A stretch of DNA of 64,000 nucleotides from Thecamonas trahens ATCC 50062 (GCF_000142905.1 NW_013657630.1:122434-186433); one strand, 5' to 3'. Counted from the stretch's first letter, positions 2,893-52,531 are shown. Notes: generated by a model not told the origin, from the sequence alone. Made by a program: numbers and translations.

Positions 2893-4695
2893 CTACTGCC
2901 CGTGGCTCGCCGCACCAGCTGCCGCAAGCAGTGCTGCAAACTCGCACCTGGGATCAAAGGTAAGAAAGTCGGGCAGGACATCGACTTGCTTGACGTGATC
3001 CTCCAGCTCAGCGTTATGGTCGGCAGTCTCGGGTTTGCCATCGGGCTCACAGGCGTCACCATGCAGCGCCACAAACTTGGTCAGCTTGTGCGACTCGGCA
3101 GTGTGGAAGCGGACGGTAAAAACTTGGTCATGCCCAGCGACGCGCCAGCAGGTCGTCAGCCCGCGCGAGTGAGGCCACTCGTTGGTTGCGGCGACGAGGA
3201 ACAGTGCCAGATCGTTGCTGCGGGCCATAATCAGCACCCATTCCCGGGCAACTTCCAGCAGCTTTTCCGGCCTGACGACGACGTTGTACAGCAGCGCGTC
3301 GGTCACCCGGGCTGCGGCTTCCTCTAGCGGACACGCCATGACCTCGGCGATCTCGGAAATCCGGGCCCGCAGCGGATACTTGGGCATGAGCCGCTCCGTG
3401 AGGTCAAAGAGCTGCACGCACTCATGAAAGGTTGCGGCAAGCTCTTCGATGACGTCAGTGATGGCGGGCTCGGGTCCATCCAACACAGTCCAGCGAGCGC
3501 GGATGGAGCGGGCAAGGTAGAGTGCGTGGCGCTTGCTAATTCGCGCCTGGTTGTACTCCTCCTCCTGCTCAGGCGGAATAGGCTCGAGCTCGCCCTTGGG
3601 TGCGAGCAAGCCGACCTTCTTGCCGATGCGGTCGACTCTCAACGGGCGCGGAACAGAGTCCCACAACTCCATCATCTCGCTCATCATGGTGTGCTTGGCC
3701 AGCGGATCCTTGGCGATCCGAAACTTGGAGTACACCTTGTGCGAGGCGTGCTTGACTTCGAGCGACTCGCGGGTGTGGAACTGGAGCTCCCACAGCATGC
3801 CGGTGTTTGAGTTCCGGATGACGGTGTTGATGCCCTGGTACTCGTCACCACGCCGGACAGCGTTGCGCGAGGTCATCGAGTAGACCGTCCTCGTCACGCT
3901 CCGCTTGGTGTAGTCGCTGCCCGAGAGAATGACAGAAACCTCGTCCGAGTACTTTTGCCCGCCCACGTCGCTGTCAAAGCTCGACTGGACATTAGCCAGC
4001 ATCGATGGGTCGAATGCGGCGTAGACATCCTTGCGGGCGTCGGTAATCCAGTAGTTCTTCTCCTCGACAAACTCGAAGCGACCTTGGGACGGATTGGCCT
4101 CGGGGTCATAAAAGTCAGCCTGCATAAGCGCCTGACGCACCATCTCCACTCCACTCGAGTACATCTCGGTCTCAAACTGGATGGTGTACCGCAGTGCGTC
4201 CTTGATCGAGGCGCAGAGCGCGTCCTCATCGTCATCGGCCAAGGCTGCAGCCTTGTCCCGCAACTTGCGCTCCATCGAGTGACGGGTCTTGAACCTGTGC
4301 TCCAGCCCGACCATGACTCCGCCATTGGCTTCAGCCGCCGCCTGGACGTAGCCGGTAATCTGTTTCTCGCCACGGACAGCCTGGTTGAACAGCCGAGCCG
4401 CGGCGTTGCGTGCCCGGGTGGCGAGCGAGGCCGACAGACCCTGTCCGCGATTGTCCGGCAGCAGTGTCAGCGAAAGCATACCTCCACTCCCTGTCCACAG
4501 CGCGGTGACCAGCTCAGGCTGTGACCTTATGGTGATGGTTTCACCCTCATTGTCGACGTAGGTCGGGACAAGCCCATTGTGGTACTCATTGTCCACCACA
4601 TGCATGAGCGCCGTAAAGTAGTCTGCCTCACCCGAGAGCAAGTGGACCCGGTTGCGACCGCCGACAGAAAGCTGCACCCTTATCCCATCCGCCAT
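2893..4695 (-). CDS. PB1 domain + RelA/SpoT-like (Tas1/Apk2/XopAD-type) nucleotidyltransferase + degenerate second RelA/SpoT-like domain, 600 aa
   Basis: aa1-80 PB1 with an OPCA-like motif (TYVDNEGETITIRSQPEL). aa~97-357 has GLEHRFKTRHSMERK, IKDALRYT, KNYW, YQGIN, WELQFHTRES and H..Y..FR. aa~395-580 repeats these motifs in degenerate form (EPAIT, VTDALLYN, TNEW, FTVRFHTAES). Confidence 0.85.
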   Translation of the reverse strand: MADGIRVQLSVGGRNRVHLLSGEADYFTALMHVVDNEYHNGLVPTYVDNEGETITIRSQPELVTALWTGSGGMLSLTLLPDNRGQGLSASLATRARNAAARLFNQAVRGEKQITGYVQAAAEANGGVMVGLEHRFKTRHSMERKLRDKAAALADDDEDALCASIKDALRYTIQFETEMYSSGVEMVRQALMQADFYDPEANPSQGRFEFVEEKNYWITDARKDVYAAFDPSMLANVQSSFDSDVGGQKYSDEVSVILSGSDYTKRSVTRTVYSMTSRNAVRRGDEYQGINTVIRNSNTGMLWELQFHTRESLEVKHASHKVYSKFRIAKDPLAKHTMMSEMMELWDSVPRPLRVDRIGKKVGLLAPKGELEPIPPEQEEEYNQARISKRHALYLARSIRARWTVLDGPEPAITDVIEELAATFHECVQLFDLTERLMPKYPLRARISEIAEVMACPLEEAAARVTDALLYNVVVRPEKLLEVAREWVLIMARSNDLALFLVAATNEWPHSRGLTTCWRVAGHDQVFTVRFHTAESHKLTKFVALHGDACEPDGKPETADHNAELEDHVKQVDVLPDFLTFDPRCEFAALLAAAGAASHGQ

Positions 4696-4805
4696 ACTGC
4701 CTTTTCTGGGAGGAGAGAGCTAGTGCTGGTGTCCTGGTCCTACTCCTGCTCCTTGACCTTGTGTGGGGGGGGGGGGTGGTCGCAGAGTTTGTGGCTTTCG
4801 CTGAA

Positions 4806-4863
4806 CACGATCACGATCACGATCACACTCGCGATCACGATCACGATCACGATCACGATCACC
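4806..4863. repeat. (CACGAT)n microsatellite in the 255-bp divergent intergenic region
   Basis: Directly visible cacgatcacgat... run with one interruption. Confidence 0.9.
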
Positions 4864-4950
4864 CGCACCTCCCCCCCCCCCACCACACACACACCCCACC
4901 CCCTACACATACCCACACTCACACCTTCCCACCTCACCCATCCCTAAGCT

Positions 4951-7548
4951 ATGAAACGGTGGCGCGAAGTGGTGCATGCCCACTCGGGCGGGTGGAAGTC
5001 CACAGCCAGTGCACAGTGGAAGGCCATTCTGGCCACAGTTGCTGCTCCACCTACAGGTCTCCTCCCTTCCACACAAAGCCGCTCGTCCAAGCCCTCCACC
5101 GCATGGCCTACTTTCTCGGACTCTGCCTGCTGCCTATCAAACTCATCTTCAAACTCATCGTTGTCGTCGTCAGCATCGGTTGATCACTCTCTTAGTGATC
5201 ATGGTCTTGACCATGATGATGTTGATGTCGCTCCGCTCCTCGCTCGCGCGCCGTCGCTGGAGATGCTTGCGCCGGACTTGGCGGCTATGGCCCGCACGCT
5301 CAAGTCGCAGAGTCATCGGAGCAATGGCTTGGACGATTCTGAGTCTGATTCGGGTGAATCCGACTCGGACTCGTCCTCGCTTGATCCGGGCTTGGCCCTC
5401 TCGCCCACAAAGATCAATAGCTCGCCGGACGACGATGCTGGAGAGGTGTGGACGACAGTGCTTGCTGCGGTCAAAGCAAAGCGGCTTGCTGAGAGCAACT
5501 ACAACGACGATGATGACGATGACGCTTCGTCCGACGATGGCATGGACATGGAAGATGTGGAGGCCTTTCCGCCTGAGCTCCGCCGAGTCTCGTCGCAGCT
5601 GCTGCTGCCGCAAGAGTCGGCCGGCGAGCTGCGCGGTGCTGCCCGCTGGCGCGCAGTCGTGGCAGCCAACAAGGACACGCTCGCCGAGTTGGCCACCGCC
5701 ACCTGGACTCGTATCGCTGGCACGGTGTCCGGCTCGGATGTCTCCGAGACCGAGACTGAAGCCGAGGCCGAGTTCGGCACTCCCGAGCTCGCAGCCGACC
5801 CGCGCGCCGACAGCCTCTCCTGGCCTGTGGTGCTCTCAGAGCTCGAGTCCTCTCTCGAGCCACAAAGTGGGCCGTGGCTCACCTCGATGCTCTCGTCCGA
5901 ATCACTTCACGATATGCGGTGGGGCGAGATTCAGAACTACGCCGACAAGCATCACCCCGAGCTGGTCGAGGTCGTTGACTCGACGCTGCCGAGCTCCGAC
6001 TGGGACCGTACCGAGCTTCCGGATGAGTTGCCTTCCATCAGCGACTCGACGCTCCGTGCTCGGCGCACCAGACACTCGCATGGCCGAAATCTGAGTCCGG
6101 CTGCCGTCCTTGTTCTCCGCGCCGCGCACTCGCGCGACTCGATGGGCGTGGCATCCAACAGCTCGCTTGCCAGCATGAACGCGCGCATTGCATCGTACGA
6201 CGGCCTCTTTGCTGACTTGGTCAGGGACAACGGGAAACGCTGGCTGCCGGACGGGCTCACCCCATCCCCGTCCCTACAAGACCTGGTCGCTGATCCGGAG
6301 CTGGCCGCCACCGCCGCCTCACAGCCCGACTGGCGCGATGTTGCCAAGTCGCAGTGGTTAGTTGCCACCGCGCACGCTGACCTCTTATCGGCCGACTCGG
6401 ACTCGGTCGACTTTACTTCGGACGACGACCATGCTGGCTCACACTCGTCGTCGCAACACTCGGCCTGCGGCAGCAGACCGGGCGCCAGCGCCGACCTCAA
6501 CGGGTCGACATCGCTGGAGGAGGCCATTGCACTCGCCTCAGCTGCAGCGACAGGCGCGGAACCGCCAGCGCCGCCTCCGATGATTATCACGGGTGTCCAC
6601 GAGCTCCCGCTGGATACACTCCTCGAGTCCATTTCTGCAGCTGCGGCTCCAACGCCGTCGCCGCGCTCGCTGCCTCGTTCGCATCTCGAGCACTCGAACT
6701 TGGTCCAGACACTTGCACAGCTGTCGAGCCTTGTCGCCGACAAGGTTGCCGACGCCAAAGCCGTGCTCGCCATCTCGCCCGACCCGGCGCTCGGCAACGC
6801 CTATCGCTCGCTCTGCGCCGAAGCAGACTCGCTGGCTGAGACTCTCGATGCCGTGACTAGTGGTGCTGAGCGGACCGGTGCCACGCACGCTGGCCCGCAC
6901 GTGGCCACTGAGACCATCGACGCGCTGCGGGCGTACGCACACCGTGCCGAAGCCCAGGTCAAGGTACTTGGAAATCGATTCGAGGCTACCGCAGCCGCAA
7001 CTCGCTCCGCCATTGCCCGCGTTCGTTCACAAGCAAACCGACTCGACGACCTGGCTGTGCGGCGGGCAGCGCTCGACGCCCAGTTGGCAGAGCTTGAGGC
7101 GCTGCACGTGTCAGCGCTCGAGACAGGAGCACATGCGCGTACGACTAGTGATGCTGCCGCTGCCGCTGGCGACTCGGTCGCTGCCTCCTTGATCAACAAG
7201 ATCGTGACAGTGCAGCAGCGGCGGCTGGCGCCGACACCGCCGTCCGCGGAGCCTCTAGACATGCGTCCGTTGGGTGCGCGACTCGACGCGCTCTCGGCTA
7301 CCCTCGCGGCGTCGTTGGAGCACAACCGCGAGCGGCTAGCATCGGCGCGGTCTCACGCTCTCTCACAGTCGCCGTCACGGCTGCAGTTCTCGGGCCGGGC
7401 AGCAGCGCGGGCGCAGCAGCAGCGGACTAGCACGCCGCCGCCACGTCGCGGCCGCCGAGGCCAGACAAGAAGAGCCGGGCGCGGGCGCGGCCCGCTGGAG
7501 GCACGGCTGCTGGCGTCACCGTCGTCGGTCACCAACCCGTGGCGGTAG
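4951..7548 (+). CDS. Hypothetical protein, 865 aa: acidic/Ser-rich N-half with recurring Trp helices, coiled-coil C-half
   Basis: Long ATG-initiated ORF with coding bias and heptad-like Ala/Leu/Arg/Glu segments. No family recognised. Confidence 0.75.
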   Translation: MKRWREVVHAHSGGWKSTASAQWKAILATVAAPPTGLLPSTQSRSSKPSTAWPTFSDSACCLSNSSSNSSLSSSASVDHSLSDHGLDHDDVDVAPLLARAPSLEMLAPDLAAMARTLKSQSHRSNGLDDSESDSGESDSDSSSLDPGLALSPTKINSSPDDDAGEVWTTVLAAVKAKRLAESNYNDDDDDDASSDDGMDMEDVEAFPPELRRVSSQLLLPQESAGELRGAARWRAVVAANKDTLAELATATWTRIAGTVSGSDVSETETEAEAEFGTPELAADPRADSLSWPVVLSELESSLEPQSGPWLTSMLSSESLHDMRWGEIQNYADKHHPELVEVVDSTLPSSDWDRTELPDELPSISDSTLRARRTRHSHGRNLSPAAVLVLRAAHSRDSMGVASNSSLASMNARIASYDGLFADLVRDNGKRWLPDGLTPSPSLQDLVADPELAATAASQPDWRDVAKSQWLVATAHADLLSADSDSVDFTSDDDHAGSHSSSQHSACGSRPGASADLNGSTSLEEAIALASAAATGAEPPAPPPMIITGVHELPLDTLLESISAAAAPTPSPRSLPRSHLEHSNLVQTLAQLSSLVADKVADAKAVLAISPDPALGNAYRSLCAEADSLAETLDAVTSGAERTGATHAGPHVATETIDALRAYAHRAEAQVKVLGNRFEATAAATRSAIARVRSQANRLDDLAVRRAALDAQLAELEALHVSALETGAHARTTSDAAAAAGDSVAASLINKIVTVQQRRLAPTPPSAEPLDMRPLGARLDALSATLAASLEHNRERLASARSHALSQSPSRLQFSGRAAARAQQQRTSTPPPRRGRRGQTRRAGRGRGPLEARLLASPSSVTNPWR

Positions 7549-14073: not shown

Positions 14074-17000
14074 TCAGCTGCTGGACCAGTCGTCGTCTGT
14101 CGTCTCGGTTGTGTCGGTGTGAAAGTCCGAGGTAAAGTGGCCCGAGGTGATGGTCGTGTCGAGGTCGGCGAGCGCAGTGCGGATGTGCGCTGGGAGCGGC
14201 GAAGACGGCGTCATCGGCGAGAGCGTCGGGTCGGGCCGCGGAACCCGGAGCGAGCGCGGGGTCATCATGCCCTCGGTGCTCCGGCTCGAGCTCTCGTCGT
14301 CGTCGGAGTGGCTCTCGTCTGGCCGCGGACGCCGCCGCCGCCGCATCCGACGCCGCGGCGGGATGGCGAGCGGCGCCGTCGGCGACCTGGCGACATCGCT
14401 CTCGGCCGCCGCCGCTGCCGCCAGCTCATCCAGCTCACCCGACTCGCTGCACGACTCGTCGCTCTCGAGAACAAGCGGCCGCGAAAGCGCAACAAGTGCG
14501 GTGATGTTGTCAGTCGAGTTGGCGCGGTAAGCCTTGTCACGGAGCTCAAGCGCAAGCTCGAGTGCCGACTTGAGCGCGGCTGACGGCGCGCGGACAACTG
14601 CCGCCGCCGAAACGTCGTCGATGACGTCCCACACTCCGTCCGAGCCCATGATGAGAGCCTCGACGTGCAGCGAGGGAACCGAGACGACGTGCGGCTCGGT
14701 GCAAATAGTGGATACGTTGAGCGAGTCGCCGAGCGACCGCGCGAGGTTGATTGAGTCGTTGACGTAGCCGTCGGGTGTGACAAAGCCGCCGGCGGCCCTG
14801 ATACGATCGTACTCGTCGTACGGCAGCTTGCCGACGTTGTGGTCGATGCTGAGTCGGACAACCCGCGGGTCGCGGACCATTCGTGAAGCGTGGGTCGGGC
14901 GGTGGAACTTGTCCAGCGTCCCGTACGACTCCTTGAACGACGACGCGGCGTAGTCGGGCGTGTCGTCAGAGAGGACAGCAACGGCGCGCGAGTCGCCGAC
15001 GTTGCCAAGAATGATGCGGTCCGAGGCCCAGAGAGCAACTACCGCGGCAGCGCCGTCGCGCATGTCCGAAAGCGCCTCGACAGCGTCGCCAAACGCAAGG
15101 CGCATTGCCTCTTCCTCAGACACCGCAGCCTCGCGAAGGCGCGCCGCAAGGATGCGATGAAAGTTTGAGCCGAGCCAGACCGCCGTCAGCCGGCCACCGT
15201 GGCCATCAAACACGCCGAGGTACGAGTACACGCTCCCGCGCTCGGGAACCTCGAGCAGCTCGATGTGGCACACATCTTCCATGTACGGTCGATCGCCGAC
15301 CATGTCAGCGATGCCCACGTCAGAGCAAACACCGCGGGCCGACGGTGAGCCGTCTTCAGGTGGAGGAAGCACAACAGCGTGCGAGTGTGAGAGGAACGCC
15401 GCCCGCCATGCCGGGAGCTCACCGACCGACATTCGCCGCGAGAGCTCCAGCCGCGGGCATCCGTCAACGCAGAGTGAGACGGTGGAGCCACGGAGCATGG
15501 TCGCGACTCGTGGGTGGATGACTGAGAGGTGCGGACAGAATCGGGCTGCAACATGTTGCACGCGCTTGATCTCTGCCAGCGCGTCCGGCAGAATCCTCAG
15601 CGGGTTCCCGGACAAGTTGAGCTCGCGGAGCATGTGGAGGCGGGTGAGTGAGCCGTCAATCTTGGTGATGGCATTGTTGGAGAGCTCAAGCACTTCGAGG
15701 GAAAGGCAGTCGTAGAGCGGCCGCGGAATGGCATCAAGCGAATTAGACGAAGCCCGGAAGACCTTGAGCTCCGGCAGGCCGCCGGCGGCCCAGGCTGGCA
15801 GCGTCGTGAGCGCATTGCCCGAGATAGCGAGCGTAATAAGGTTTGGCAGCTCCGGCAGGTCGTGAGCGCTGGCCGGTGCGTCCGGGAGCGCCGTCAGACG
15901 ATTGTAGTCGAGTGAAAGCCGCTCGAGCGTGTCCGAGCAGAAGAGCTCGATCGGGAGGCCGGCGTCGTTGAGGTTGTTGAACGAAGCGATGACTGCGGTG
16001 AGCGACGGGAGCGAGCCGAGGCAGGCCGGCAAGGCGGTGAGTGCGTTGTGTGAGACGTTGAGGTACTCGAGCGTGTGCAGGTGGTGGAGCTGTGACGGGA
16101 GGGTGGTGAGCGCGTTACGGGTGAGGTCAAGAACGCGGAGCGCGGCCCAGTGCGAGAGGCGCGGCAGGCCTGAGAGCTCCAGCCGCTCGAGGCCGCAGCG
16201 TGCCATTGAAAGCTGGGTAAACGGCAGGGCCTTGTTGGCGCGGCGCCGACGGCGGCGCGGGCGGCGGTTGGGGTGGCTGGAGCGAGCAACCTTGCCAGCC
16301 GCGTTGAGGTTGGGCATCGAAGTCTTCCGCGAGAGGCCGGTGTATGTGTACGCCGACTTGGTGGTGGTGTGTGAGGTGGCGGCAATGGGTGGCGAGTCTG
16401 GCTCGTCGGTAAAGCCGCCGGTGCGGGCCGAGATTGACGACGCGCGCTGACGGCCGGAGGAGGCCGTGCCTGGGTTGCGCGACCCGTGTTTGGATGAGCC
16501 TGCAGGCGCAAAGTCGACTTCGTTGGGCGATGCCGCGGTTGGAGTCAAGCCCTGCAGCGCCGATGACGTGGTCGAGAGCGAGAGGTTGCGGGCCGAGGCC
16601 GAGTGGGCAAACGGCGAGCTCCCGGACGAGGCGTGTGGGCCGTTTGTGGGAGGCGAGTCCGACGGGCGGTGCTTGCGCGGCGTCCTCGACCGACCGTCGG
16701 TGGGATCCTCTTTGGCAAGCGAAGCTACGCCACCCTTGAGCGGGTTGCCGGCAAGTGTGACGACGGTGAGCAGCGGCGCGGCACCCAGCGTGCGCGGCGG
16801 CTGATCCAGAAAGTTGAGGTCGAGCCGGAGCTCGAGGAGGGTGGCAAACACACCGAGGTCAACGTCAAACTCGGTGAGGCGGTTCCGCGAGAGAACCAGG
16901 ACAGCGAGCGAGCCGCCGACAGCCTCCAGGTCATCGGGGACGGCAACAATCTCGTTGGCTTCAAGGCGGAGCGTGTGCAGCGAGCGCATGGTCCCAATCC

Positions 17001-17565
17001 ATCCACCGGGCAGTACCTCGAGGTGGTTGTGCCCGAGGTTGAGGACCTGGAGCTCCGGCAGCGGCTGCGCCAGGTCGGGCAAAGCGCGAATGCTGTTGTG
17101 CGAGAGGTCAAGGATTTTGAGGGTGTGCGACCACGAGGTCGAGAGCGAGCTTGACGAGCGGGTCTGCAGAAAGCCGACCTGAGTCAGCCTGTTCGAGCCC
17201 ATGAGCAGCTCGACGAGCGCCGGAAAGACAATCTCGAGCGTGCCAACCCCGACAGCGGCCAGCTTGTTGCGGGTTAGGTTAAGGTGAGTGAGCGCGGTAT
17301 GGGCGGCAAAGTCGGCGGGCGGTGGGAGGACCATGGCTACATCGTTGTGCTGTAGATCCAGCGAGACGAGCGACGAGGCGGCCGCCACAAGCTCCCACGG
17401 AAAGACGCCCAGCCTGTTCCGCGCCACGTTTGCCGACGTCAGGCTTGCGGTCAGATTAGACTTGCGCACCGCCTTGCGCGGCAGCGTTTCCAGATTGAGC
17501 GCCGCGAGATCCAGATGCAGCGTTTCGGCCGCCCGAGACAGCGCGTCCGAGTGTGAGTTTCCCAT
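14074..17565 (-). CDS. Leucine-rich-repeat PP2C/PPM phosphatase (PHLPP/Cyr1-like LRR-PP2C) with an N-myristoylation motif
   Basis: MGNSHS N-terminus and two LRR blocks (LxxLxLxxNxL). Intact PP2C motifs: RPYMED, FDGHGG, GNVGDSRAV, LARSLGD, GSDGVWD, DNIT. Confidence 0.93.
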   Translation of the reverse strand: MGNSHSDALSRAAETLHLDLAALNLETLPRKAVRKSNLTASLTSANVARNRLGVFPWELVAAASSLVSLDLQHNDVAMVLPPPADFAAHTALTHLNLTRNKLAAVGVGTLEIVFPALVELLMGSNRLTQVGFLQTRSSSSLSTSWSHTLKILDLSHNSIRALPDLAQPLPELQVLNLGHNHLEVLPGGWIGTMRSLHTLRLEANEIVAVPDDLEAVGGSLAVLVLSRNRLTEFDVDLGVFATLLELRLDLNFLDQPPRTLGAAPLLTVVTLAGNPLKGGVASLAKEDPTDGRSRTPRKHRPSDSPPTNGPHASSGSSPFAHSASARNLSLSTTSSALQGLTPTAASPNEVDFAPAGSSKHGSRNPGTASSGRQRASSISARTGGFTDEPDSPPIAATSHTTTKSAYTYTGLSRKTSMPNLNAAGKVARSSHPNRRPRRRRRRANKALPFTQLSMARCGLERLELSGLPRLSHWAALRVLDLTRNALTTLPSQLHHLHTLEYLNVSHNALTALPACLGSLPSLTAVIASFNNLNDAGLPIELFCSDTLERLSLDYNRLTALPDAPASAHDLPELPNLITLAISGNALTTLPAWAAGGLPELKVFRASSNSLDAIPRPLYDCLSLEVLELSNNAITKIDGSLTRLHMLRELNLSGNPLRILPDALAEIKRVQHVAARFCPHLSVIHPRVATMLRGSTVSLCVDGCPRLELSRRMSVGELPAWRAAFLSHSHAVVLPPPEDGSPSARGVCSDVGIADMVGDRPYMEDVCHIELLEVPERGSVYSYLGVFDGHGGRLTAVWLGSNFHRILAARLREAAVSEEEAMRLAFGDAVEALSDMRDGAAAVVALWASDRIILGNVGDSRAVAVLSDDTPDYAASSFKESYGTLDKFHRPTHASRMVRDPRVVRLSIDHNVGKLPYDEYDRIRAAGGFVTPDGYVNDSINLARSLGDSLNVSTICTEPHVVSVPSLHVEALIMGSDGVWDVIDDVSAAAVVRAPSAALKSALELALELRDKAYRANSTDNITALVALSRPLVLESDESCSESGELDELAAAAAAESDVARSPTAPLAIPPRRRMRRRRRPRPDESHSDDDESSSRSTEGMMTPRSLRVPRPDPTLSPMTPSSPLPAHIRTALADLDTTITSGHFTSDFHTDTTETTDDDWSSS

Positions 17566-18106
17566 GTTGGCGCGAGAGTATGAACGTGATCACGATCGCA
17601 GTGTAATCAGCGGTGCGTAATGACGACAGTTGGAGTGTCCGCCTCACAAAGGGAGAAACCACCAGAGATGGTACGAGTGCGGAGTGGCAGCAATTGATGG
17701 ACAGTGTCGATCAGAGCAGGAGCGGGACCAGTCGAGTCGAAGGGGAGCGAGAGCAAGAGCGAGAGAAAGCGATGGTGCAAGGTGGGTGCGGCGACGACAG
17801 ATAGTGATGGCGATAACGGCAGCAGCCGAGAATGCGGGTGCGAGCGAGCACGCGCGCGAGAGAAAGAGAGAGAGAGAGGTAGAGCGAGTGGAGGAGGCAC
17901 GCAGGTATCAGCTTTGAGCAGATTAGAGGTGACAGCCTAAGATAGCGCAGCAATGACCACAACCGATACACAGATATGTGCAAAGAAGGACAGTTGCGGG
18001 GGGGCGGCGGGCGGGCGGTATGAGGTCAGTCTGTGTAGACAGGGGGGAGGGGGGCGTGCGCGTAACGGGGAGTGGTGGTGGAGTGACAACAAGTGAGCCG
18101 TGAACA

Positions 18107-18586
18107 NNNNNNNNNNNNNNNNNNNNNNNNNNNNNNNNNNNNNNNNNNNNNNNNNNNNNNNNNNNNNNNNNNNNNNNNNNNNNNNNNNNNNNNNNNNNNN
18201 NNNNNNNNNNNNNNNNNNNNNNNNNNNNNNNNNNNNNNNNNNNNNNNNNNNNNNNNNNNNNNNNNNNNNNNNNNNNNNNNNNNNNNNNNNNNNNNNNNNN
18301 NNNNNNNNNNNNNNNNNNNNNNNNNNNNNNNNNNNNNNNNNNNNNNNNNNNNNNNNNNNNNNNNNNNNNNNNNNNNNNNNNNNNNNNNNNNNNNNNNNNN
18401 NNNNNNNNNNNNNNNNNNNNNNNNNNNNNNNNNNNNNNNNNNNNNNNNNNNNNNNNNNNNNNNNNNNNNNNNNNNNNNNNNNNNNNNNNNNNNNNNNNNN
18501 NNNNNNNNNNNNNNNNNNNNNNNNNNNNNNNNNNNNNNNNNNNNNNNNNNNNNNNNNNNNNNNNNNNNNNNNNNNNNNNNNNNNNN
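18107..18586. other. Assembly gap (480 N)
   Basis: N run. Confidence 1.
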
Positions 18587-18878
18587 TCCCCCTCCCCCCC
18601 TGGCACAATCAGTGCACACGCCCTGCCGATCCCAGCCCCTCTCCACTTGATCACCACTTATACCACCCTCCCCACCCACCCATACCCTCTCCTGATTCTA
18701 CTTCCCTGCCCATCCCCACTCCCTCCCGCTTCCCCCTTCCCTCTCTCTCGCATATGATCAGTACCCCCCGCCCCCCCAAACCACCGGCCACCAACCGGTT
18801 CCCCCCCACCAACCACCAACCACCAACCGCCACACCACACCACACCACACCCCACTCACACACACGGCCCGCCGCAGC

Positions 18879-21646
18879 ATGCCTCTGGACGCAAAGCTGT
18901 CCGAAGACTTTATCCGCTGGGTTCAACTGCGGTTGGCTTCGGTGGCCAATGCCTCAATTGCAACTGGTGGTGCTGGTGCTGGTGCTGGTGCTGGTGCTGG
19001 TGCTGGTGCTGGTGCTGGTGGTGGTGGTGGCCGTGTCTCTCCTGATGATGGTGGCTCTTCGAATGGTGCGGTGACGGAACAAGGACATGCTCTGGCTGTT
19101 ATTCTCATTCATGCTCTTGGTATCTTTGGTCCCACACTCTCTGTTGGTCTTCGTGCTCTGCACTCGCGATTGGCTCCGCCTGAGCAACAGCAGCTGGTAT
19201 CTCTCTTGACTGACATCACTGCCTTGCCTGCCACTGATCTGCTGTCAAGGGCTGCTACTGCTTCCGCTCACTCGGCTAGCTACACCGCTGTCCTGCATGG
19301 CCTGGCAGATGCTGCTTCCGTGGGAATGGATGTCGAGGTGGAGCTCTCCTCGCGTCCTAGTGGAGGCGGCTCGCCAGCATCAACGCCCGTCCCGCTGGTC
19401 TCAGTCTCGGGCATCTCGGACATCGACGCTGACAGCTCCATGGGCATGTCCCGGATGCTTTCCACCGTCTCACGGGGCTCGGTTCGCTCCGCTACCTCGT
19501 CCGTCCGTCGGACCCACGGTCGGAGCCGCAAGTCCGCCCGCAGCAAGACCCCGGCGAGCACGGGCCGCTGGCCGTCGACGAGTGGGCCGACCCGGCCCTG
19601 CGCGAGCGGCTGCTGTCGGCCTCCATCGAAGCTTTGCTGGAGCACTCTGATGCCCAACACGCAGTCGAGGCTGTCATGGCGCATCGCGAGGTGGGTGAGG
19701 ACACCAAGTCGCGGGTCCTCGGCAAGCACTGGGCACTCTCGTCGTCATCGGACGTCGAGACCGGGCTCGCCCTCTCAGCCCGGGTCCGCGAGCTCGCCTA
19801 CCTCGTGGCGCTGGTCGACCGGGCGTCGACGCGGCAGTCGCGGTCGCCGCGCAAGGGGAGCGCCAAGCCGCTCGACCGGCGGTTTGCACGGCGGCGGTCG
19901 AGCGTCGCCCCCTCGGCACCATCGGCCACGGTCGTCGAGCATGTCGGTGGCGAGGTGCGGGCGCAGGTGTGGAAGACGCTGGCGTCGCTGCAAGAGATTC
20001 CGACGACCGAGCGACTCCGCGAGACCAACATGGTGGTCAACGCTGTCGAGGGCCTGCTCACCGCACCCCTGGTGGCTCGCAAGAAGGAGCGCGCCCGCTC
20101 GCCGGACGCTCGCAAGCGTGAGCGCCGTGAGCGTGCCCGCGCTCTCATGCGCGACCCTACCGGCGCTGGATCCTCGGTCCTCTCCTCGCTCCGCCGCGGA
20201 AGCGTGACCGGCGCCACCGGCTCGCGCCGCGGCTCGGTCCACTACTCGTCGGCCACCGTCGACGACGACACCTTTGAGGACGCGCTGCGGATCCAGGTCT
20301 CGCTCGAGCTCACCCGCATGCGGCTGGGCCTGTTGGAGCCGGTCGTCTTTGACCTGATGTTCTTCCTCTCCAAGCTCGACCTCTCATACAACTCCATCTC
20401 GCACCTCCCGCCCACCATCGCCCGCATCGCCAACCTCCGCGAGTTCAACATCTCACACAACACGCTTGCTGACCTCCCTCGTGAGCTCGGCCTGTGCAAG
20501 CAGCTTGAAGTCCTCGACCTCTCAGGCAACGTCATCGAGGAGCTGCCGGCGTCGCTAGGCAAGCTGCCGCTGCTGCGGACGCTCCGCGCCTGTGGCAACA
20601 AGCTCACCACGCTCCCGGCCTCGTTTGTACGCCTCGACCTCCAAGAGCTCGACCTCTCGCACTGCTGCTTTGCCGAGCTGCCTGCCGAACTGGCGGTCCT
20701 CACCTCGCTCAAGAGTCTCATGCTGTATGGCAACCCGCTGGTCTCGCTCCAGGCTATTACCCTCATCGACTCGGGTGACCGCTTTGGCGTGCTCGAGTAC
20801 GTGCTGGCGCGCGCGACCCAGCGCGCACTGTATCTGGTCGGTGCCGCCGTCTCGCCCATCCACCCGGACCCGCAGTTTGTCAAGACCGGCAAGGTGAGCC
20901 GTCTCTTGTCGGCCCAGAGTCTCCTCGAAGTGCCGTCGGTCTCGACGGCGGCCTCGTCAAGCGACGGCTCGTCTTGCTCAGACTCCCACTCGAGCTCCTC
21001 GGCGAGCTCGACCGGCGCCTCCAACTTTGCTGCTCTCCACCTCGCCTCGCTCGGCCATCACATCCCGAAGTCGCCGTCACTCACCCGCGAGCACTCGGCG
21101 CTCATTGTCGAGGCCGACGCTTTGGCCAAAGAGGCCGACACCCACCTTGCCGCCCTTCTTGACAAGCTCGACACTTCGCTCACCTCCGCTGCCGTCCTCA
21201 ACTCGTTTGATGACGAGCTGAGCGCCCTCGAGGCCTACTTTCCCGACTACGTGGCCCACGTCCGCGCCAACGGCTTTGCCGAGCTGCACGAGCGGTGCGA
21301 GGAGGTCAATGAGCTCCGTGCTGATCTCCATGACCTGTACGACCACATCTGCCTCGAGCGCGAGCACATTATCACTCTCCGCGACGAGCACACCACCATC
21401 TCCCATGTCCGCGCCGATCTCGAGCGCGAACTCAGCGCTGCCGTCGAGTGCGAAGCCTGGCTCCTGGACCGCATCTCTCACGCCCGTCGCGAGCAGGACC
21501 GCATGCTCATCCAGATCGAAAAGCTCCAGTCGCGCATCGATGGTCGTGACTACACCCGCATGCGTGACACTGCCGACGCACAGAAGCGTGCGGCTAGGTC
21601 CGATGCCCATGGCCCGGCCGTCCCGCTCATGTGGTGGCAGCACTGA
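18879..21646 (+). CDS. LRR + coiled-coil protein, one gene with an apparent frameshift at 19549-19552 (CCCC)
   Basis: ORFs 18879.. and ..21646 join as SKTP-GEHGPLAVDEWADPAL if one C is added. About 6 LRRs at roughly 20360-20750 (LSKLDLSYNSISHLP, LEVLDLSGNVIEELP) and a C-terminal coiled coil. Confidence 0.8.
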
Positions 21647-34528: not shown

Positions 34529-37500
34529 ATGTCGCGCTCGAGCTCGATATCGAGCCACACACGGCTCAACGTCTCGCAGTCCCTCGCCGAACTCCCCACT
34601 CAGTCATCGCTTGTTCTCGACGACTCGGCCAACGATTGTGACGTCTCCGAGTTAGACGCTGAGAATGGCGTGTCCGCTTCGTTCTCGGATTTCGATGGCT
34701 CGCTCAGCGCATCGCGCGACGACTCGAGCATCGACTACGCCCGGCGGAGCTTGTTGCGCGACAGCCCCCGATCGATGTCGCGCGCTTCCGACTCGTCCTT
34801 GCCCGTGCAAGGTGCCATGCGCAAGCGCGCCATCGAGTCGAGGTTGGAGCGTGTAGTCGAGATGCATTCCGAGCGGAACTCGATGTTGCAGGCGGATATC
34901 TCCAAGACCAGGTCGTCTTCGTCCTCGTTGTCATCGTCATCATCATCGACGTCATCGTCCTCTACGCCGTCGTCGCCGTCATTATCACGGTCCTCAGCGA
35001 GGGGCTCGGGGTCAACCAGAAGAACCAAGCTGCCTCTATTGATGCACTCTAACCCCTGCAACAGAATCCCCGATGACACCACGATGAGCCGCTCCGACTC
35101 GACAGCCACAGACACGTCAGACGCGATGCTCAATGTGACATCCATTCTCAACCACAAGAGCGGGGAGCATCTACCTGCTGGTGTGGCTGGCAAGTCGCTG
35201 TACATGGCAATGGTCGACGAGCCAACCAGCGCTTGGTCGCTGCCAGATGAGATGACGCGGCCAGAAAGCTCTGCGCACCAGCCAACCACACCGTCGCCTC
35301 TCTCGTCGCCCTCGAATACCTGCCTGGCGCCACTTTCAGGCAACGGTGGTCGCTCTCTGGGCGGAGGCAAAGGCCGGTCGTCGTCGCGGTCGATCGTGCG
35401 GCTCAAGTCAAAACAGTCACTTCGACGGCGGGCAACGTCGATGAACGACTCGGCAGCGCGATCGCAGTCGCGATCGCGTGTGAGGGCCCGCGCTGCATCG
35501 CCGTCTGACGCCCAGCCGGTAGGACCCAAGCGCATCACGCCTTTTGAAGCCGCCAAGCTTGCCAAGCAAGTGGAGACCCTGTCGCGCCAGATCGAGAACA
35601 CCGATGCGGTGGTAGAGAACCAGACCCACGAGCTTGCTGTAGCAAGCACAACCATTTCCGAGCTCTCGTCGACAGTTCGCGCGCTGCGAAAGCACATCGC
35701 GCGGCTAGAGGAGAGCAACAGCTCCGGTGCCGGAGGTGCTGTGGCCTCGGAGGTCGCGCTCGAGCTGCAGCAGAAAACGAGTCGCTGCGAAGCCAGCTAG
35801 ATCAGCAGAGGCGGCAGGGCCAGGATCTGCAGTCGCAGCTTGCGCCACTTCGGGTCCTGCACTCCGCAGTCGCCTCGCACTTGCTCAATGCACAGCTCAA
35901 GATCAAGGCGCTCAATGCCCAGGTGCGGTCGGCCAACGACGAGCTCTGCGCGCTGCAGCAAGCACACGCGGCACTGGCCGAAGAGAATCGCCAGCTGCAC
36001 AAGCAGACCGATATGGCTCAGGCCCGCGATGCGGCGTACACTACACTCCTGGCTGAGCATGCTGCGCTGCTGGAAAGGATGAGTGAGCTGGAACTCGGCG
36101 CTGAGAACGCTACGCTTGGAGCGATGGCGCGCCGAGCGGACGCGTTCCGTAACCAGCTTCATCTCGAGCTCGAGGCCAAGGACGACGTAATCAGTGAGCT
36201 TGAGCTCAAGCTGGCCAGCGCGCAGCGGATCCGCGCGCGCTTCGAGTTGGCGCTCAACGAGCAGGCAATTGAGGCTGACACTGAGCGTCAGAAGCTGTCC
36301 CAGGCAACCAAGCTCATCCGCAATCTGGAGAGCCAAAACGCGCAGCTTCGCGATCCAGGTATGCAAGCCCCGATGGGGCGAGTCGCGCTGCTTTTCACCG
36401 ACGTGCAGGGCTCGACGCGGCTGTGGGCGGCGGATCCGGAGAACATGAGCGAGGCGCTCTGGGCACACAACACGGTCATCCGCGAGTGCCTCGCCGAGTG
36501 GCAAGGGTATGAGGTCAAGACCGAGGGTGACGCGTTTATGGTGGCGTTCGCCGATCCACGCGACGCCGTTGCGTGCGCGCTCCGCATTCAGTCGGCACTC
36601 CTCGACATCGCATGGTCGCCCAAACTCCTCGAATCGGACGATGCAGCAGAGGACTACGACGCCGATGGTGTGCTTGTATATTGCGGCTTCCGAGTCCGCA
36701 TGGGCATCCACATCGGCGAGCCGGTAACCCGTCGTGACCCGACCCATCACCGCATGGATTACTTTGGCTCGGTTGTCAACCTCGCGGCGCGTGTGGAGAG
36801 CAAGGCGCAAGGTGGACAGGTGTTGATATCCGAGGAGACGCTTGCAGCCATCCGGCCCATGGACGATCTTACCATCGGCATGCCGGCGCCACTGCTTCCG
36901 GCCGGATCGTCTTCGGCCGGGGGGACACACGATGTGCTCGACCATGCGCATATTGTCCCGCTGGGCGCCACCGAGCTGAAGGGCATCCCCCATCCCGTCA
37001 CACTCTTCCAGGTTGCTGCCAACGAGCTCGCCGGGCGAATCTTTACTGCTTGGGGTGCCATGAATGATGAGGACCCGTCGCCCCCGGTCGAATTGATGAC
37101 CCCAGAGGTTGACTCGATCGCCTTGTCGGTCGTCGTCCCGTCTGGCTCGAGCCACACGCTCGCCCTGCCGACGGCATGCTCGCACTCGGAGCTCTTGCCG
37201 ACCGAGGCAGCGCTTGTGCCATCACAGATCCAGGCAAGTCTCACTGCTGCCGAGGCACGCATTCAAGACCTTGAAGACGAGCTGGAACGAACCCAGGTTG
37301 TCAAACAAGGAACCAGTGCACGGCTGGTTGATCTCACGCAGGAAGCCAAGGATACACGCGAGTCTACAGCAGAACTGCAGGAGCGGCTTGTGGTGGCAGA
37401 GCGAGCCCGCGCCAAAGCGGCGGCGCGAGGTGAGATTCTCGAGTCCCAGCTTGCGAATGCTAGCGACGATGCCCGCCACGATGCAGAGATGGCCAAGACT

Positions 37501-39551
37501 CGGATTGCGGCGTTGGAGGGTAGCCTCGAGGAGAGCAAGGTGTCTCTGCAGCAGGCATCGGATGCGCATGCGGCGGCGGCGGCCGAGGCAGTCAGCTTGG
37601 GGGTCCAGCTGGAAGATGTGCGCCGTCAGGCCCGGATGCAGGTTGAGCGTCTGGAACTCGAGGTCGAGCGGTGCCGGCGGCGGGAGTCGCAGCTGACAGA
37701 CGAGCTTGCAGTGGCGCGCACCGACGCTGACCGACGTGCCGACGAGTATCGTACGCGCGAGCTGGCGTGGCAAGCTGATCTCGATGAGCTTCGCACCACT
37801 GAGCGCGCCTGTCGAATTGCAGCCGAGGATCTTGCCCACAATGTCGAGGCCAAACTACGACGAACCGAGGCGGCTCTCTCCAGCGCCGAGCAGCGACGGG
37901 ATGAGCTTGAAGCTTCATCCCATAAGCTGTTGGAGACGCAGTGGATGATGGCGGCCAAGGATCGCGAGCTCGAGTTCAAGCTTAATGAGCTGGTCACCAA
38001 GGACCGCAAACTGAAGGAACTGATGCAGGAACTGGGCACCAACGAGCAGGCACTGTCAGATGCCAGGCGTGAGCTTGCTGATGCTAAGCGGAAGCTGGCC
38101 AGCAACGAGCAGTCGCTGGCAGATGCCAGGCGCGAGCTTGCTGATGCGAAGCGGGAACTAGCCCACAACGAGCAGGCGCTAGCAGATTTCAGGCGCGAGT
38201 TCGATGACACCAGGCAGGAGTTGAGCACTAGAGATCAGGCGCTGGCCGATTCCAGGCGCGAGCTCGATGATACCAGGCAGAAGTTGAGCACTAGAGATCA
38301 GGCGCTGGCAGATTCCAGGCGCGAGCTCGATGACACCAGGCAGGAGTTGAGCACTAGAGATCAGGCGCTGGCAGATTCCAGGCGCGAACTCGCGAGCTGG
38401 CGTGGCAAGCTGATCTCGATGAGCTTCGCACCACTGAGCGCGCCTGTCGAATTGCAGCCGAGGATCTTGCCCACAATGTCGAGGCCAAACTACGACGAAC
38501 CGAGGCGGCTCTCTCCAGCGCCGAGCAGCGACGGGATGAGCTTGAAGCTTCATCCCATAAGCTGTTGGAGACGCAGTGGATGATGGCGGCCAAGGATCGC
38601 GAGCTCGAGTTCAAGCTTAATGAGCTGGTCACCAAGGACCGCAAACTGAAGGAACTGATGCAGGAACTGGGCACCAACGAGCAGGCACTGTCAGATGCCA
38701 GGCGTGAGCTTGCTGATGCTAAGCGGAAGCTGGCCAGCAACGAGCAGTCGCTGGCAGATGCCAGGCGCGAGCTTGCTGATGCGAAGCGGGAACTAGCCCA
38801 CAACGAGCAGGCGCTAGCAGATTTCAGGCGCGAGTTCGATGACACCAGGCAGGAGTTGAGCACTAGAGATCAGGCGCTGGCAGATTCCAGGCGCGAGCTC
38901 GATGACACCAGGCAGGAGTTGAGCACTAGTGATCAGGCGCTGGCAGATTCCAGGCGCGAACTCGATGACGCTAAGCGAGAGCTGACCGCCAAAGAGCAGA
39001 CTCTGGCAGGCGTCCGGAGCGAGCTGGTGCTGGCAATGGATATGAACCTTCAGCTGGAGGCTGACGCGTGGCAGGCGCCTCCACCAGAGAACGAGCTCGC
39101 CATCAATGCTGCCAACGAACGGGCCAGCCAGGCCGAGGCCGAGCTGGCTCTCTGCCAAAACGAGTTGGCAAAGGCACGTAAGGCACAGATGTCCTTGACA
39201 GTCGACGACAAGTCCCAATCTGCGTTACAGAGCACAATCAGTGCGCTGTCCAACAGTCTGGCGCTTCTCCAGAACCAACTCGCATCGGCTTCCGCCGCCG
39301 AGACCGCAGCCCGTCGCAGCGAGGCGGCAGCCCGCGCCGCCGAGCACGATGCCCGCAAAGAGGCTTCTGACGCACGACAGGAGCTGAAGCTCGTCCGACA
39401 AAACATGCTCGCGGCAGAGGCGCTCGGCGAGAGCCGGGCCGCGTGCGCCACTGGCGAGCTGGAAGACGAAATCAAGCTACTTCGCGCGGAGCGGACATGG
39501 CTGCTTGATGAGCTCGAGATCGCACGGGTCAAGGCAGGCCTGCCACTGTGA
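34529..39551 (+). CDS. Coiled-coil soluble class III adenylate cyclase, interrupted by a frameshift (about 35774-35777) and a frame-breaking tandem duplication (37756..38962)
   Basis: Cyclase domain at about 36370-37030: LLFTDVQGSTRLW, GYEVKTEGDAFMVAF, RVRMGIHIGEP, MDYFGSVVNLAARVES. The K and D residues indicate ATP specificity. Ser-rich N-terminus, long heptads, no TM seen; the 5' end is uncertain. Confidence 0.85.
37756..38962. repeat. Direct tandem duplication (635-bp and 572-bp copies) containing 63-bp (21-aa) coding repeats
   Basis: cgcgagctggcgtggcaagctgatc... starts at both 37756 and 38391. The unit DDTRQELSTRDQALADSRREL occurs three times in copy 1 and twice in copy 2. Confidence 0.95.
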
Positions 39552-51095: not shown

Positions 51096-52202
51096 CTACG
51101 AGAAAAAGCCTGGTCGCTTGCCAACGGCGGCGTCGGCAACAATGGTGGCGATCCATTTGCGCCGGGTGGCGGGACGCTTGCACAAGTACACCTTGCTGAG
51201 CGATCCCTTGATCACCGACTTGGGGTGCGCCTGCCAAGTCTCTACTGCGAGCGGACCGGCGGCTTCGAGCGCGGCCTGCAGGTCGGCAGGCACGACCAGG
51301 GCTTCGATGTTGTCTAGCCGCGCCCACGAACCGTCAGCCTTGGCGGCAGCAATGACGGAAGCACCGCGGGCAGTCATGCGCCCCGATGCCTCGAGCTCAG
51401 CAATGGTCCGCTTGTTGAGCGCCGACCAACCCGAGCCCGGCTTGCGCGGATGCAGGTCGACGCACCGCAGGACGCCCGGATCCAGCTTGCGAGTTGTCGA
51501 GTCGATCCAGCCAAAGCACAGTGCTTCGCGAACCAAGCCTGTCCAGTCAAGAACCTCGGCCTCAGCCACGCCACAAAATGAGGCGATCCGAGTCTGTGAG
51601 CCCTTGTACGCCATCGGCACCGCTACCGCGCCCGAGCTCTCCGCATTGACCTCCAGCCACGCTCGAAGCCGCGCTGCCGTCACCACATCTGCCAGCTCAA
51701 GGCAGGGGTACCTGCTTGAGCACAGCTCCGCCAAGCTCCGTCCCGATCCATCAGCCGCTCGCCACACAGGCCTCAGCTCCCCGCCATCGCCCTTGCTGCT
51801 GCTGCCGCCCCCTCCGCCCGATCCCGATCCGGGCCCCGATCCGGGTCCCGATCCCAGGCTCGACTCCGCCGCCACTATCTCTGTCCCCGAGCCTGCCAGA
51901 CTCGCCACGTAGTCCTCGATATGGCGTGGCTGGATGGTGCTCGGAGCCGAGTCTGAGCTCGGATCGCTGGCGGCAGCAAAGCAGACGAGGCCGTCAACAA
52001 GCGAGGCCACGACGGCCGCCAGAGCCGCCTGGGCAAAGACCACCGCCTTGGGCCCTGCCGAGGGCATCAGCGCCCGCACTCGACGGCCAGGAACGAGCGG
52101 TATCGACTCGCCGGTACACCTGCCTCCCTGCGCCTCCATATCCTCCAGCCTACACAACGACAGGTGGTGACGAGCCGCGTGCGAGCCACGGCACACCATC
52201 AT
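51096..52202 (-). CDS. YdeI/OmpD-associated family protein (bacterial-type) with an N-terminal extension
   Basis: LRAWLE.N, EALCFGWIDS, PRKPGSGWSALNK, L.ASGRMT..G......AKADGSW, VPADLQAAL, KRPATR. Intronless; the start is uncertain (ATG at 52202, 52139 or 52067). Confidence 0.85.
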   Translation of the reverse strand: MMVCRGSHAARHHLSLCRLEDMEAQGGRCTGESIPLVPGRRVRALMPSAGPKAVVFAQAALAAVVASLVDGLVCFAAASDPSSDSAPSTIQPRHIEDYVASLAGSGTEIVAAESSLGSGPGSGPGSGSGGGGGSSSKGDGGELRPVWRAADGSGRSLAELCSSRYPCLELADVVTAARLRAWLEVNAESSGAVAVPMAYKGSQTRIASFCGVAEAEVLDWTGLVREALCFGWIDSTTRKLDPGVLRCVDLHPRKPGSGWSALNKRTIAELEASGRMTARGASVIAAAKADGSWARLDNIEALVVPADLQAALEAAGPLAVETWQAHPKSVIKGSLSKVYLCKRPATRRKWIATIVADAAVGKRPGFFS

Positions 52203-52531
52203 CCCTGCCGCGTCCAAGCCCGAGTCCGAGACCCATGATCATCGCCATCATCACCATCGCATGCACTGACACATCAAGCTCACGCCACAATGTCTCATGT
52301 CGTGCTGTCATACCCGTACCAGATCACAGCGCTCTGCCCTGACCTCGTCCTGCCTTGCCGTCCTCTGCCTTGGTTGTGACATAGCCACATCCACGGTCAT
52401 GGCCACGGAACTGATTCTGATCAGCCTCGCCCTCACCCCCTCACCAACCCGACCAACTCGATTCGCATACCCATACCCATACCCCTCAACTATCCATCCA
52501 TCTCCATCATGATCCCCCCCCGCAACCAACC

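Follow-up and report, generated by a model that had tools for sequence, protein, structure and literature searches.

What would a plastid-free protist do with an alarmone synthetase domain of bacterial toxin type, and how might it keep such an enzyme in check? The question is raised by a gene of the apusomonad Thecamonas trahens ATCC 50062, which lies in a 64,000-nucleotide stretch of genomic DNA (GCF_000142905.1 NW_013657630.1:122434-186433; hereafter, the window). Its predicted 600-residue product, P0001, appears to combine an N-terminal PB1 domain, an intact synthetase (SYNTH) domain (copy 1) and a degenerate second one (copy 2), and to belong, as one branch, to a protist family that seems not to have been described before. 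We propose that P0001 may be a scaffold-docked, self-restrained (p)ppNpp synthetase used for signalling; drawing on sequence, structure models and analogy, we give this model as a whole a probability of roughly one half. The features on which it is built are as follows.

2893..4695, minus strand: whole open reading frame (ORF), 600 aa (P0001), from ORF calling; 99% identical to T. trahens AMSG_09491
4450..4695, minus strand: predicted PB1 domain, aa 1-82, from a weak Pfam match, a Pfam match in a homologue, Foldseek, alignment and PDB profile matches
3613..4413, minus strand: predicted intact SYNTH domain (copy 1), aa 95-361, from phmmer, NCBIfam, PHROG, Foldseek and residue alignment
3841..4047, minus strand: 69-aa insert, W216 to Y286 (between KNYW and YQGIN), of low model confidence
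2905..3540, minus strand: predicted degenerate copy 2 (pseudo-SYNTH), aa 386-597, from the XopAD profile, a first-copy profile and structure alignment

Copy 1 carries every synthetase motif that the initial annotation had quoted: RFKT (R134), SMERK (residues 140-144), DALRYT (D166 and R169), KNYW (K213), YQGIN (Y286 and N290) and ELQFHT (E303 and Q305). The residues kept are R134, K136, S140, R143, K144, D166, R169, K213, Y286, N290, E303 and Q305. The solved structure of SaEAS (8VX3) was the only PDB sequence match with E below 1 (phmmer, E 9e-18) and was matched by fold as well (Foldseek, E 7e-8). The SaEAS active site, comprising D121, R124, K154, N169, E182 and Q184 (PMC12691689), corresponds to D166, R169, K213, N290, E303 and Q305 of copy 1. 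Further matches were to the NCBIfam XopAD profile (E 8e-32; a score of 109.5 bits where the cut-off is 2000, confined to the synthetase region) and to PHROG 7625 (E 7.5e-17). The housekeeping motifs are replaced by RYT in syn2 (R169-Y-T) and GxN in syn3 (G288-I-N290), the Apk-type signature (PMC12226406). Pfam RelA_SpoT (PF04607) scores P0001 under its cut-off (14.7 of 27 bits), and a whole-protein Pfam search gives no family. The same resource shows no HD, TGS or ACT match in P0001, setting it apart from long and plastid RelA/SpoT homologues (RSH), and no WXG, MuF, PAAR or SKWP match. Judged by its sequence, copy 1 belongs to the Apk1/Tas1-SaEAS-MuF-XopAD type of SYNTH domain and not to housekeeping or plastid RSH; the 8VX3, XopAD and PHROG 7625 matches and the RYT/GxN signature thereby uphold the toxin/effector-type likeness and bacterial or phage affinity first claimed for it. 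By analogy with these relatives, P0001 is very probably an active pyrophosphokinase. Matches to RNase H, SRP14 and M157 were dismissed as weak chance matches, and an ESM Atlas score of 0.82 for P0001 was taken as a lead only (the family member P0019 scored 0.93-0.94 to bacterial single-domain clusters).

The closest known system is SaEAS and its relatives, the exported alarmone synthetases (EAS; 8VX3; Ahmad et al. 2025, PMC12691689), which provide the best sequence and structure match and share the active-site residues and the RYT/GxN/FH signature. EAS enzymes are bacterial, single-domain and exported via Sec or secretion systems, whereas P0001 is eukaryotic and has, besides copy 1, a PB1 domain, the degenerate copy 2 and a large insert. 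Where EAS enzymes have a signal peptide or secretion domain, the N-terminus of P0001 is PB1, and the protein has no hydrophobic signal or membrane segment there or elsewhere (top 19-residue hydropathy, 1.37). The EAS survey is limited to bacteria, and its supplements contain neither Thecamonas nor any of the eukaryote codes tried (PMC12691689). The (p)ppApp synthetases Apk1/Tas1 (delivered by a type VI secretion system) and Apk2 (a MuF phage toxin) share with P0001 the domain clade, the motifs, PHROG 7625 and a structural match to 6ox6 (Z 10.4). Unlike them, P0001 has no delivery domain, and no adjoining immunity or Aph1 hydrolase gene was seen in the window. The SKWP type III effectors XopAD and RipS also have two domain copies (PMC3482391, PMC13667924), but P0001 has no SKWP array, falls short of their >2000 aa and scores below the NCBIfam cut-off. 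P0009, the only XopAD looked at here, has two partly canonical copies, the second of which keeps Y-G-N, E, Q and H, and its domains group apart from the eukaryotic set.

The degenerate second domain and the 69-aa insert are additions to the initial annotation, which had recognized only the intact domain. Copy 2 keeps D466 as its sole retained catalytic residue, along with NxW and HT; the other key positions are substituted (R169 to L469, K213 to T504, Y286 to S510, N290 to T514, E303 to T527 and Q305 to R529). Copy 2 matches the same portion of the XopAD profile as copy 1, and also a small profile of first copies, whereas plain BLASTP between the two copies was not significant (E 0.32), making the repeat detectable by profile and structure only. 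In VIA comparisons, the copy 2 model aligned with SaEAS (8vx3_B) over 192 residues (Z 16.1; root-mean-square deviation 3.6) and scored lower against CapRel (Z 11.2) and Tas1 (6ox6, Z 10.4). The model that includes copy 2 has an overall mean predicted local distance difference test (pLDDT) score of 65, higher in the copy 2 part, and the order of helices and strands is identical in the two modelled copies. Between P0001 and its full-length homologue P0003, copy 2 is 41% identical (74/179). Copy 2 is thus predicted to retain the fold while being stripped of its catalytic residues, the pattern of a pseudo-enzyme.

At the N-terminus, the PB1-like region noted initially held up. Pfam PB1 is weak in P0001 (E 0.027; 14.9 of 23.6 bits), and PB1 exceeds the Pfam cut-off in P0003 (28.7 bits), which is 43% identical over its full length. 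Foldseek matched residues 1-82 to the PB1 domains of NBR1, MEK5 and p40/p67phox (E 7e-4 to 1e-3), with TM scores of 0.71-0.76 to NBR1 and MEK5, and PDB profile matches to NBR1, MEK5 and aPKC PB1 domains were found at E 0.05-1.5. Residues 1-82 therefore combine a predicted PB1 beta-grasp fold with profile matches to PB1. A PB1 domain that self-polymerizes (type I/II) needs both a strand-1 Lys and an acidic OPCA motif. P0001 has an acidic OPCA-like motif (DNEGE...RSQPE, aa 48-61) and a Gln where three homologues carry the strand-1 Lys, although Arg residues nearby might replace it; P0010 and P0011 keep the Lys with a degenerate OPCA motif. In this alignment of four PB1-clade proteins, P0003 alone has both the Lys and the acidic motif. 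Because the clade does not conserve the two interaction faces jointly, self-oligomerization of the PB1 domain, and with it the activation by head-to-tail assembly that had been suggested, is doubtful. Neither P0010 nor P0011 has a Pfam PB1 match: BLASTP with the P0001 PB1 domain did not match P0010, a two-sequence PB1 profile run against 203 N-termini recovered P0010 (E 5e-5) and not P0011 (E 0.79), and the PB1 identity of P0011 comes from alignment only.

Searching 1.84 billion representatives with a profile returned 3447 matches at E <=0.001; of the best 150, 31 have an intact domain followed by a degenerate one. (A strict regular-expression classifier miscalls some intact domains as degenerate, and only these 31 intact-then-degenerate cases were used.) The full layout of PB1, intact and degenerate domains recurs in three further proteins, P0003, P0010 and P0011, at 33-45% identity, one of them from EukProt. 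Checking 20 of the 150 provided four named carriers of the tandem, these four from transcriptome-type sources: the choanoflagellates Hartaetosiga gracilis and Salpingoeca infusionum, the amoebozoan Phalansterium solitarium and the kinetoplastid Apiculatamorpha spiralis. An additional search yielded 38 proteins, including four MMETSP transcripts. Several of 17 metagenome loci are broken by apparent introns. In 39 tandem proteins chosen from the matches, the D, R, N, W, G, E, Q, H, T, K, H, Y and R positions of copy 1 are kept in 39/39. In copy 2 (counted with that of P0164 left aside), the position of K213 is kept in 0/37, N290 in 1/30, E303 in 8/35 and H319 in 1/31, while the N and W are kept in 35/37 and the T in 34/35; P0018 has a second copy that is nearly intact. 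By sequence, the family appears to span Apusozoa, Choanoflagellata, Amoebozoa and Discoba, with PB1 as one of several front modules. The earlier idea of a domesticated bacterial enzyme survives insofar as a bacterial/phage-type domain does occur in a eukaryote; it is not a one-off, and P0001 instead looks like one branch of a multi-lineage protist family.

Among eukaryotes there are precedents for small alarmone synthetases, namely divRel in Dictyostelium, ascomycetes and diatoms (PMC3153485). Like P0001, divRel and the RelA_SpoT domains of fungal NLRs are bacterial-type synthetases in non-plastid eukaryotes, and they are ascribed to horizontal transfer (PMC3153485, PMC4986451). They are found by standard RSH and Pfam models, however, whereas the P0001 family lies under the Pfam RelA_SpoT threshold, a distinction drawn from the published descriptions; the available parts of those descriptions mention neither PB1 nor an intact-plus-degenerate tandem. 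Full-text searches, which did not reach most subscription papers, likewise turned up no account of AMSG_09491, of a fusion to PB1 or of any intact-plus-degenerate family in eukaryotes.

The modules in front of the tandem are eukaryotic signalling domains. A Pfam scan of 80 matches found RRM, ankyrin, EF-hand with GYF, WW or PH domains on tandem members. One metagenome locus, L001 (27-3277), has a GT-AG intron within the domain and places RRM and cNMP-binding domains ahead of an intact and a degenerate synthetase; its product is possibly a cAMP/cGMP-gated alarmone synthetase. We also observed a 1377-aa protein (P0093) in which repeated EF-hand and GYF domains come after the tandem and the front end, like that of P0044, is ankyrin-like, and an 860-aa protein (P0173) whose synthetase domain follows an N-terminal region without a Pfam match, which by eye we take to resemble an actin-fold phosphatase/kinase. 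The RRM domains of P0027, P0055 and L001 raise the alternative that the acceptor is an RNA 3' end (tRNA CCA, as for CapRel/FaRel2-type toxins) or another macromolecule, gripped by the pseudo-domain or the insert. Inactive tandem copies do act as RNA binders in OAS3, and the four PB1-clade proteins have a large insert next to the acceptor loop (48-78 aa, against 4-8 aa in 35 other family members). Yet in structure and sequence the nearest relative is SaEAS, which acts on nucleotides (with copy 2, Z 16.1, compared with 11.2 for CapRel; the sole PDB sequence match noted above), and in the nine proteins checked neither copy carries a net positive charge. We consider an RNA acceptor distinctly unlikely.

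A different use, as a weapon against prey, is suggested by the membrane-targeting features of several members and by the export of the bacterial relatives. The named tandem carriers are bacterivorous protists, and an alarmone made at the phagosome, or released, could arrest ingested bacteria. P0023 and P0024 have C-terminal hydrophobic segments, and 18/43 members that begin with Met have a Met-Gly start. Against this, P0001, P0003, P0010 and P0011 lack any signal-like or membrane segment, PB1 is a cytosolic module, and a route into the prey would be needed for charged alarmones or for a 65-kDa protein, leaving an anti-prey role very unlikely.

To ask where the tandem came from, we compared it with its bacterial, phage and viral relatives. 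In 165 bacterial or phage loci carrying the domain, no intact-plus-degenerate tandem was seen; a single ORF among them is multi-copy (Nocardia, all copies intact). Bacterial tandems do occur (Nocardia WXG100, MuF and XopAD). Among tails of at least 100 aa behind bacterial or phage domains, 0/30 match the pseudo-domain or SYNTH profile, although with flanks of 2-4 kb very distant second copies could escape. Among viral contigs, the first patterns picked out one locus and the family pattern 388 matches, of which 80 were kept; those read were all single-domain. Two single-domain relatives, L016:145-951 and L015:427-1176, lie on AT-rich contigs (GC 0.25 and 0.29), and the former adjoins a DUF5759 gene and appears to be a giant-virus fragment. 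Separately, P0043, a phage-like polyvalent protein of 1478 aa, has a canonical Pfam RelA_SpoT domain (539-650), an Apk-type domain (743-927) and a HAD hydrolase.

These viral relatives also touch on the possibility of an innate-defence effector for cell suicide or dormancy, in which the pseudo-domain would act as a lock and an infection signal would release a drain on ATP/GTP like that of Apk1/toxSAS. The nearest characterized relatives are toxins, a RelA_SpoT domain serves as an effector in fungal NLRs (PMC4986451), the family has a patchy distribution with swapped modules, and its single-domain relative occurs on giant-virus-like contigs. On the other hand, the window holds one SYNTH ORF amid housekeeping genes, PADLOC matched none of P0001, P0003 and P0019, and the 80 scanned matches include no NLR, TIR or death-type modules, the fused modules being everyday signalling domains. 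With no PADLOC match and housekeeping neighbours, we found nothing in favour of the antiviral role once suggested for this gene, and we regard a defence function as unlikely.

In a tree of 90 domains, from which P0004 and three proteins with partial first copies were left out, all 35 eukaryote-type first copies fall within one group of 44 (SH-aLRT 91, not starred), apart from XopAD. A phage sequence adjoins the PB1 clade (SH-aLRT 93, not starred). Monophyly of the 35 is not rejected by the approximately unbiased test (p-AU 0.385), which is no proof of a single origin. In a comparison of both copies, 22 copy 1 and 22 copy 2 domains fall on the two sides of one branch (96/95), 31/39 copy 2 domains score higher against the copy 2 than the copy 1 of other groups, and pairwise identity in one copy rises and falls with that in the other (r 0.65; 0/2000 permutations). 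Since the copies split in the tree and covary in identity, the data favour a single old duplication inherited as a unit. Most likely the tandem arose once, through acquisition of a bacterial or phage toxin-type domain that was then duplicated.

Returning to the signalling enzyme proposed at the outset, copy 1, from its likeness to SaEAS and Apk, would move pyrophosphate from ATP to the 3'-OH of a purine nucleotide, yielding (p)ppApp and/or (p)ppGpp. The bacterial relatives work very rapidly and, if neither exported nor held by an immunity protein, kill from within the cytoplasm (PMC12691689). Given this toxicity, and no recorded RSH hydrolase in T. trahens, copy 1 would need control, and copy 2 is the simplest candidate for a brake or sensor, with the front modules for input. 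As a built-in regulator, copy 2 could hold copy 1 off or sense a ligand, filling the role that export, immunity proteins or hydrolases play for the bacterial enzymes. PB1 would not polymerize but would tether the enzyme to a signalling partner that itself bears a PB1 domain, an arrangement that suits a domain whose Lys and acidic motif are paired only in P0003. In other members, cNMP-binding, EF-hand, ankyrin, WW, PH or RRM modules, or Met-Gly starts, may take the input role, and the output would be a cytosolic messenger of stress or growth arrest.

Several points weigh against this proposal. The RYT/GxN signature does not define the product, since SaEAS makes both alarmones while AaEAS and VpEAS make only (p)ppGpp (PMC12691689) and motif swaps left the specificity of Apk2 unswitched (PMC12226406). 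The insert, close to the acceptor loop, could alter the substrate; confidence in the structure models is modest (mean pLDDT 62 and 65). Because the search profile favours catalytic motifs, the conservation of copy 1 (though not the pattern in copy 2) is partly circular, and the eukaryotic status of most family members is one that we infer. In the tree, the smallest group to take in all 35 eukaryote-type first copies also contains nine bacterial or phage sequences, and the split between copies could be a product of shared constraint or long branches. Finally, the hint of transcription in T. trahens comes from one identical 308-nt contig in a seawater RNA run, beside the runs of unrecorded kind described below; marine runs with small shares were set aside.

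If borne out, the proposal would touch on a wider question. Alarmone synthesis is regarded as essentially bacterial and plastid, a view that can be put to a direct test with a plastid-free protist family whose active sites are predicted to be intact. In animals, no synthetase is recognisable, although the hydrolase Mesh1 is present along with traces of ppGpp (PMC9965611, PMC3153485); Mesh1 hydrolyses (p)ppApp besides (p)ppGpp (PMC7644958). For Monosiga brevicollis and Salpingoeca rosetta, the RSH census lists Mesh1 only (PMC7229694), and the present family includes choanoflagellates and an apusomonad near the animal/fungal root. It falls beneath the usual profiles and was therefore missed by the standard census. 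We tentatively raise, at well under even odds, the broader idea of an overlooked and possibly ancient eukaryotic alarmone system, in which a tandem of enzyme and pseudo-enzyme takes its input through PB1, cAMP, calcium, ankyrin, WW, PH and the membrane and would be the lost synthetase partner of Mesh1, making (p)ppApp/(p)ppGpp a cytosolic messenger in apusomonads, choanoflagellates, amoebozoans and kinetoplastids. That partnership cannot hold for T. trahens itself, which scores 0 RSH genes in the census (Jimmy et al., PMC7229694) and hence has no recorded Mesh1. The same score shows that the census missed AMSG_09491, and it agrees with the initial observation that no hydrolase is to be seen. 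Pairing an intact with a degenerate domain would, moreover, be a novel means of taming a toxin-type enzyme, comparable to kinase/pseudokinase pairs.

The gene itself is, by several measures, a genuine nuclear gene of T. trahens, as first proposed. The 600-codon ORF at 2893-4695 is read on the minus strand (4695 to 2893), the plus strand being interrupted by stops. It does sit between ordinary eukaryotic genes, with TFIIA-gamma and FAM183 on one side and, on the other, an 865-aa ORF and coatomer gamma. Its GC content at third codon positions is 0.77, against 0.66-0.85 in 13 other long ORFs of the window. X1, an estuary metagenome of independent origin, covers both the gene and coatomer gamma at a depth of about 5-8, with scattered single-base differences; no listed contig covers the whole stretch. 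Five of these differences lie inside the ORF, two silent and three residue-changing. With eukaryotic neighbours and this shared coverage, contamination of the locus is unlikely. One could still suppose a contaminant, a chimera or a decaying pseudogene without function, pointing to the bacterial-type domain, the lack of an intron, the residue-changing majority (3/5) of single-nucleotide polymorphisms in the second strain and a codon-use correlation of 0.86, in the lower half of 14 genes compared. However, copy 1 carries none of the three residue changes, which all lie in copy 2, the domain is fused to PB1, full-length homologues at 33-45% identity share the three parts, and depth equals that of coatomer gamma in the independent sample. 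An artefact is thus largely refuted already, and we consider it extremely unlikely.

The description of the gene as intronless needs qualification at its 5' end. The NCBI model, P0002, differs from P0001 only in its first eight residues, which implies an upstream exon (window 4672-5030, minus strand), whereas contigs from five runs of unrecorded kind (X2, X7, X8, X10 and X11) cross the ATG region unspliced, which is no proof of transcription. No flanking antitoxin, immunity or hydrolase gene is evident, the neighbours being TFIIA-gamma and the 865-aa ORF; the latter is acidic, divergently oriented (window 4951-7548, plus strand) and without a Pfam match. No second SYNTH ORF occurs in the 64-kb window, and signs of mobile elements flanking the gene are limited to low-complexity repeats. 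Elsewhere in the window, an ORF with an OmdA/YdeI domain (51096-52217, minus strand; E 7e-8) represents a mostly bacterial family in eukaryotic surroundings, and GC drops to 0.33 in bin 18001-19000, probably an effect of the 480-base N gap there. The window also encodes an LRR-PP2C protein (14074-17565, minus strand) and a class III nucleotide cyclase (35881-38583, plus strand).

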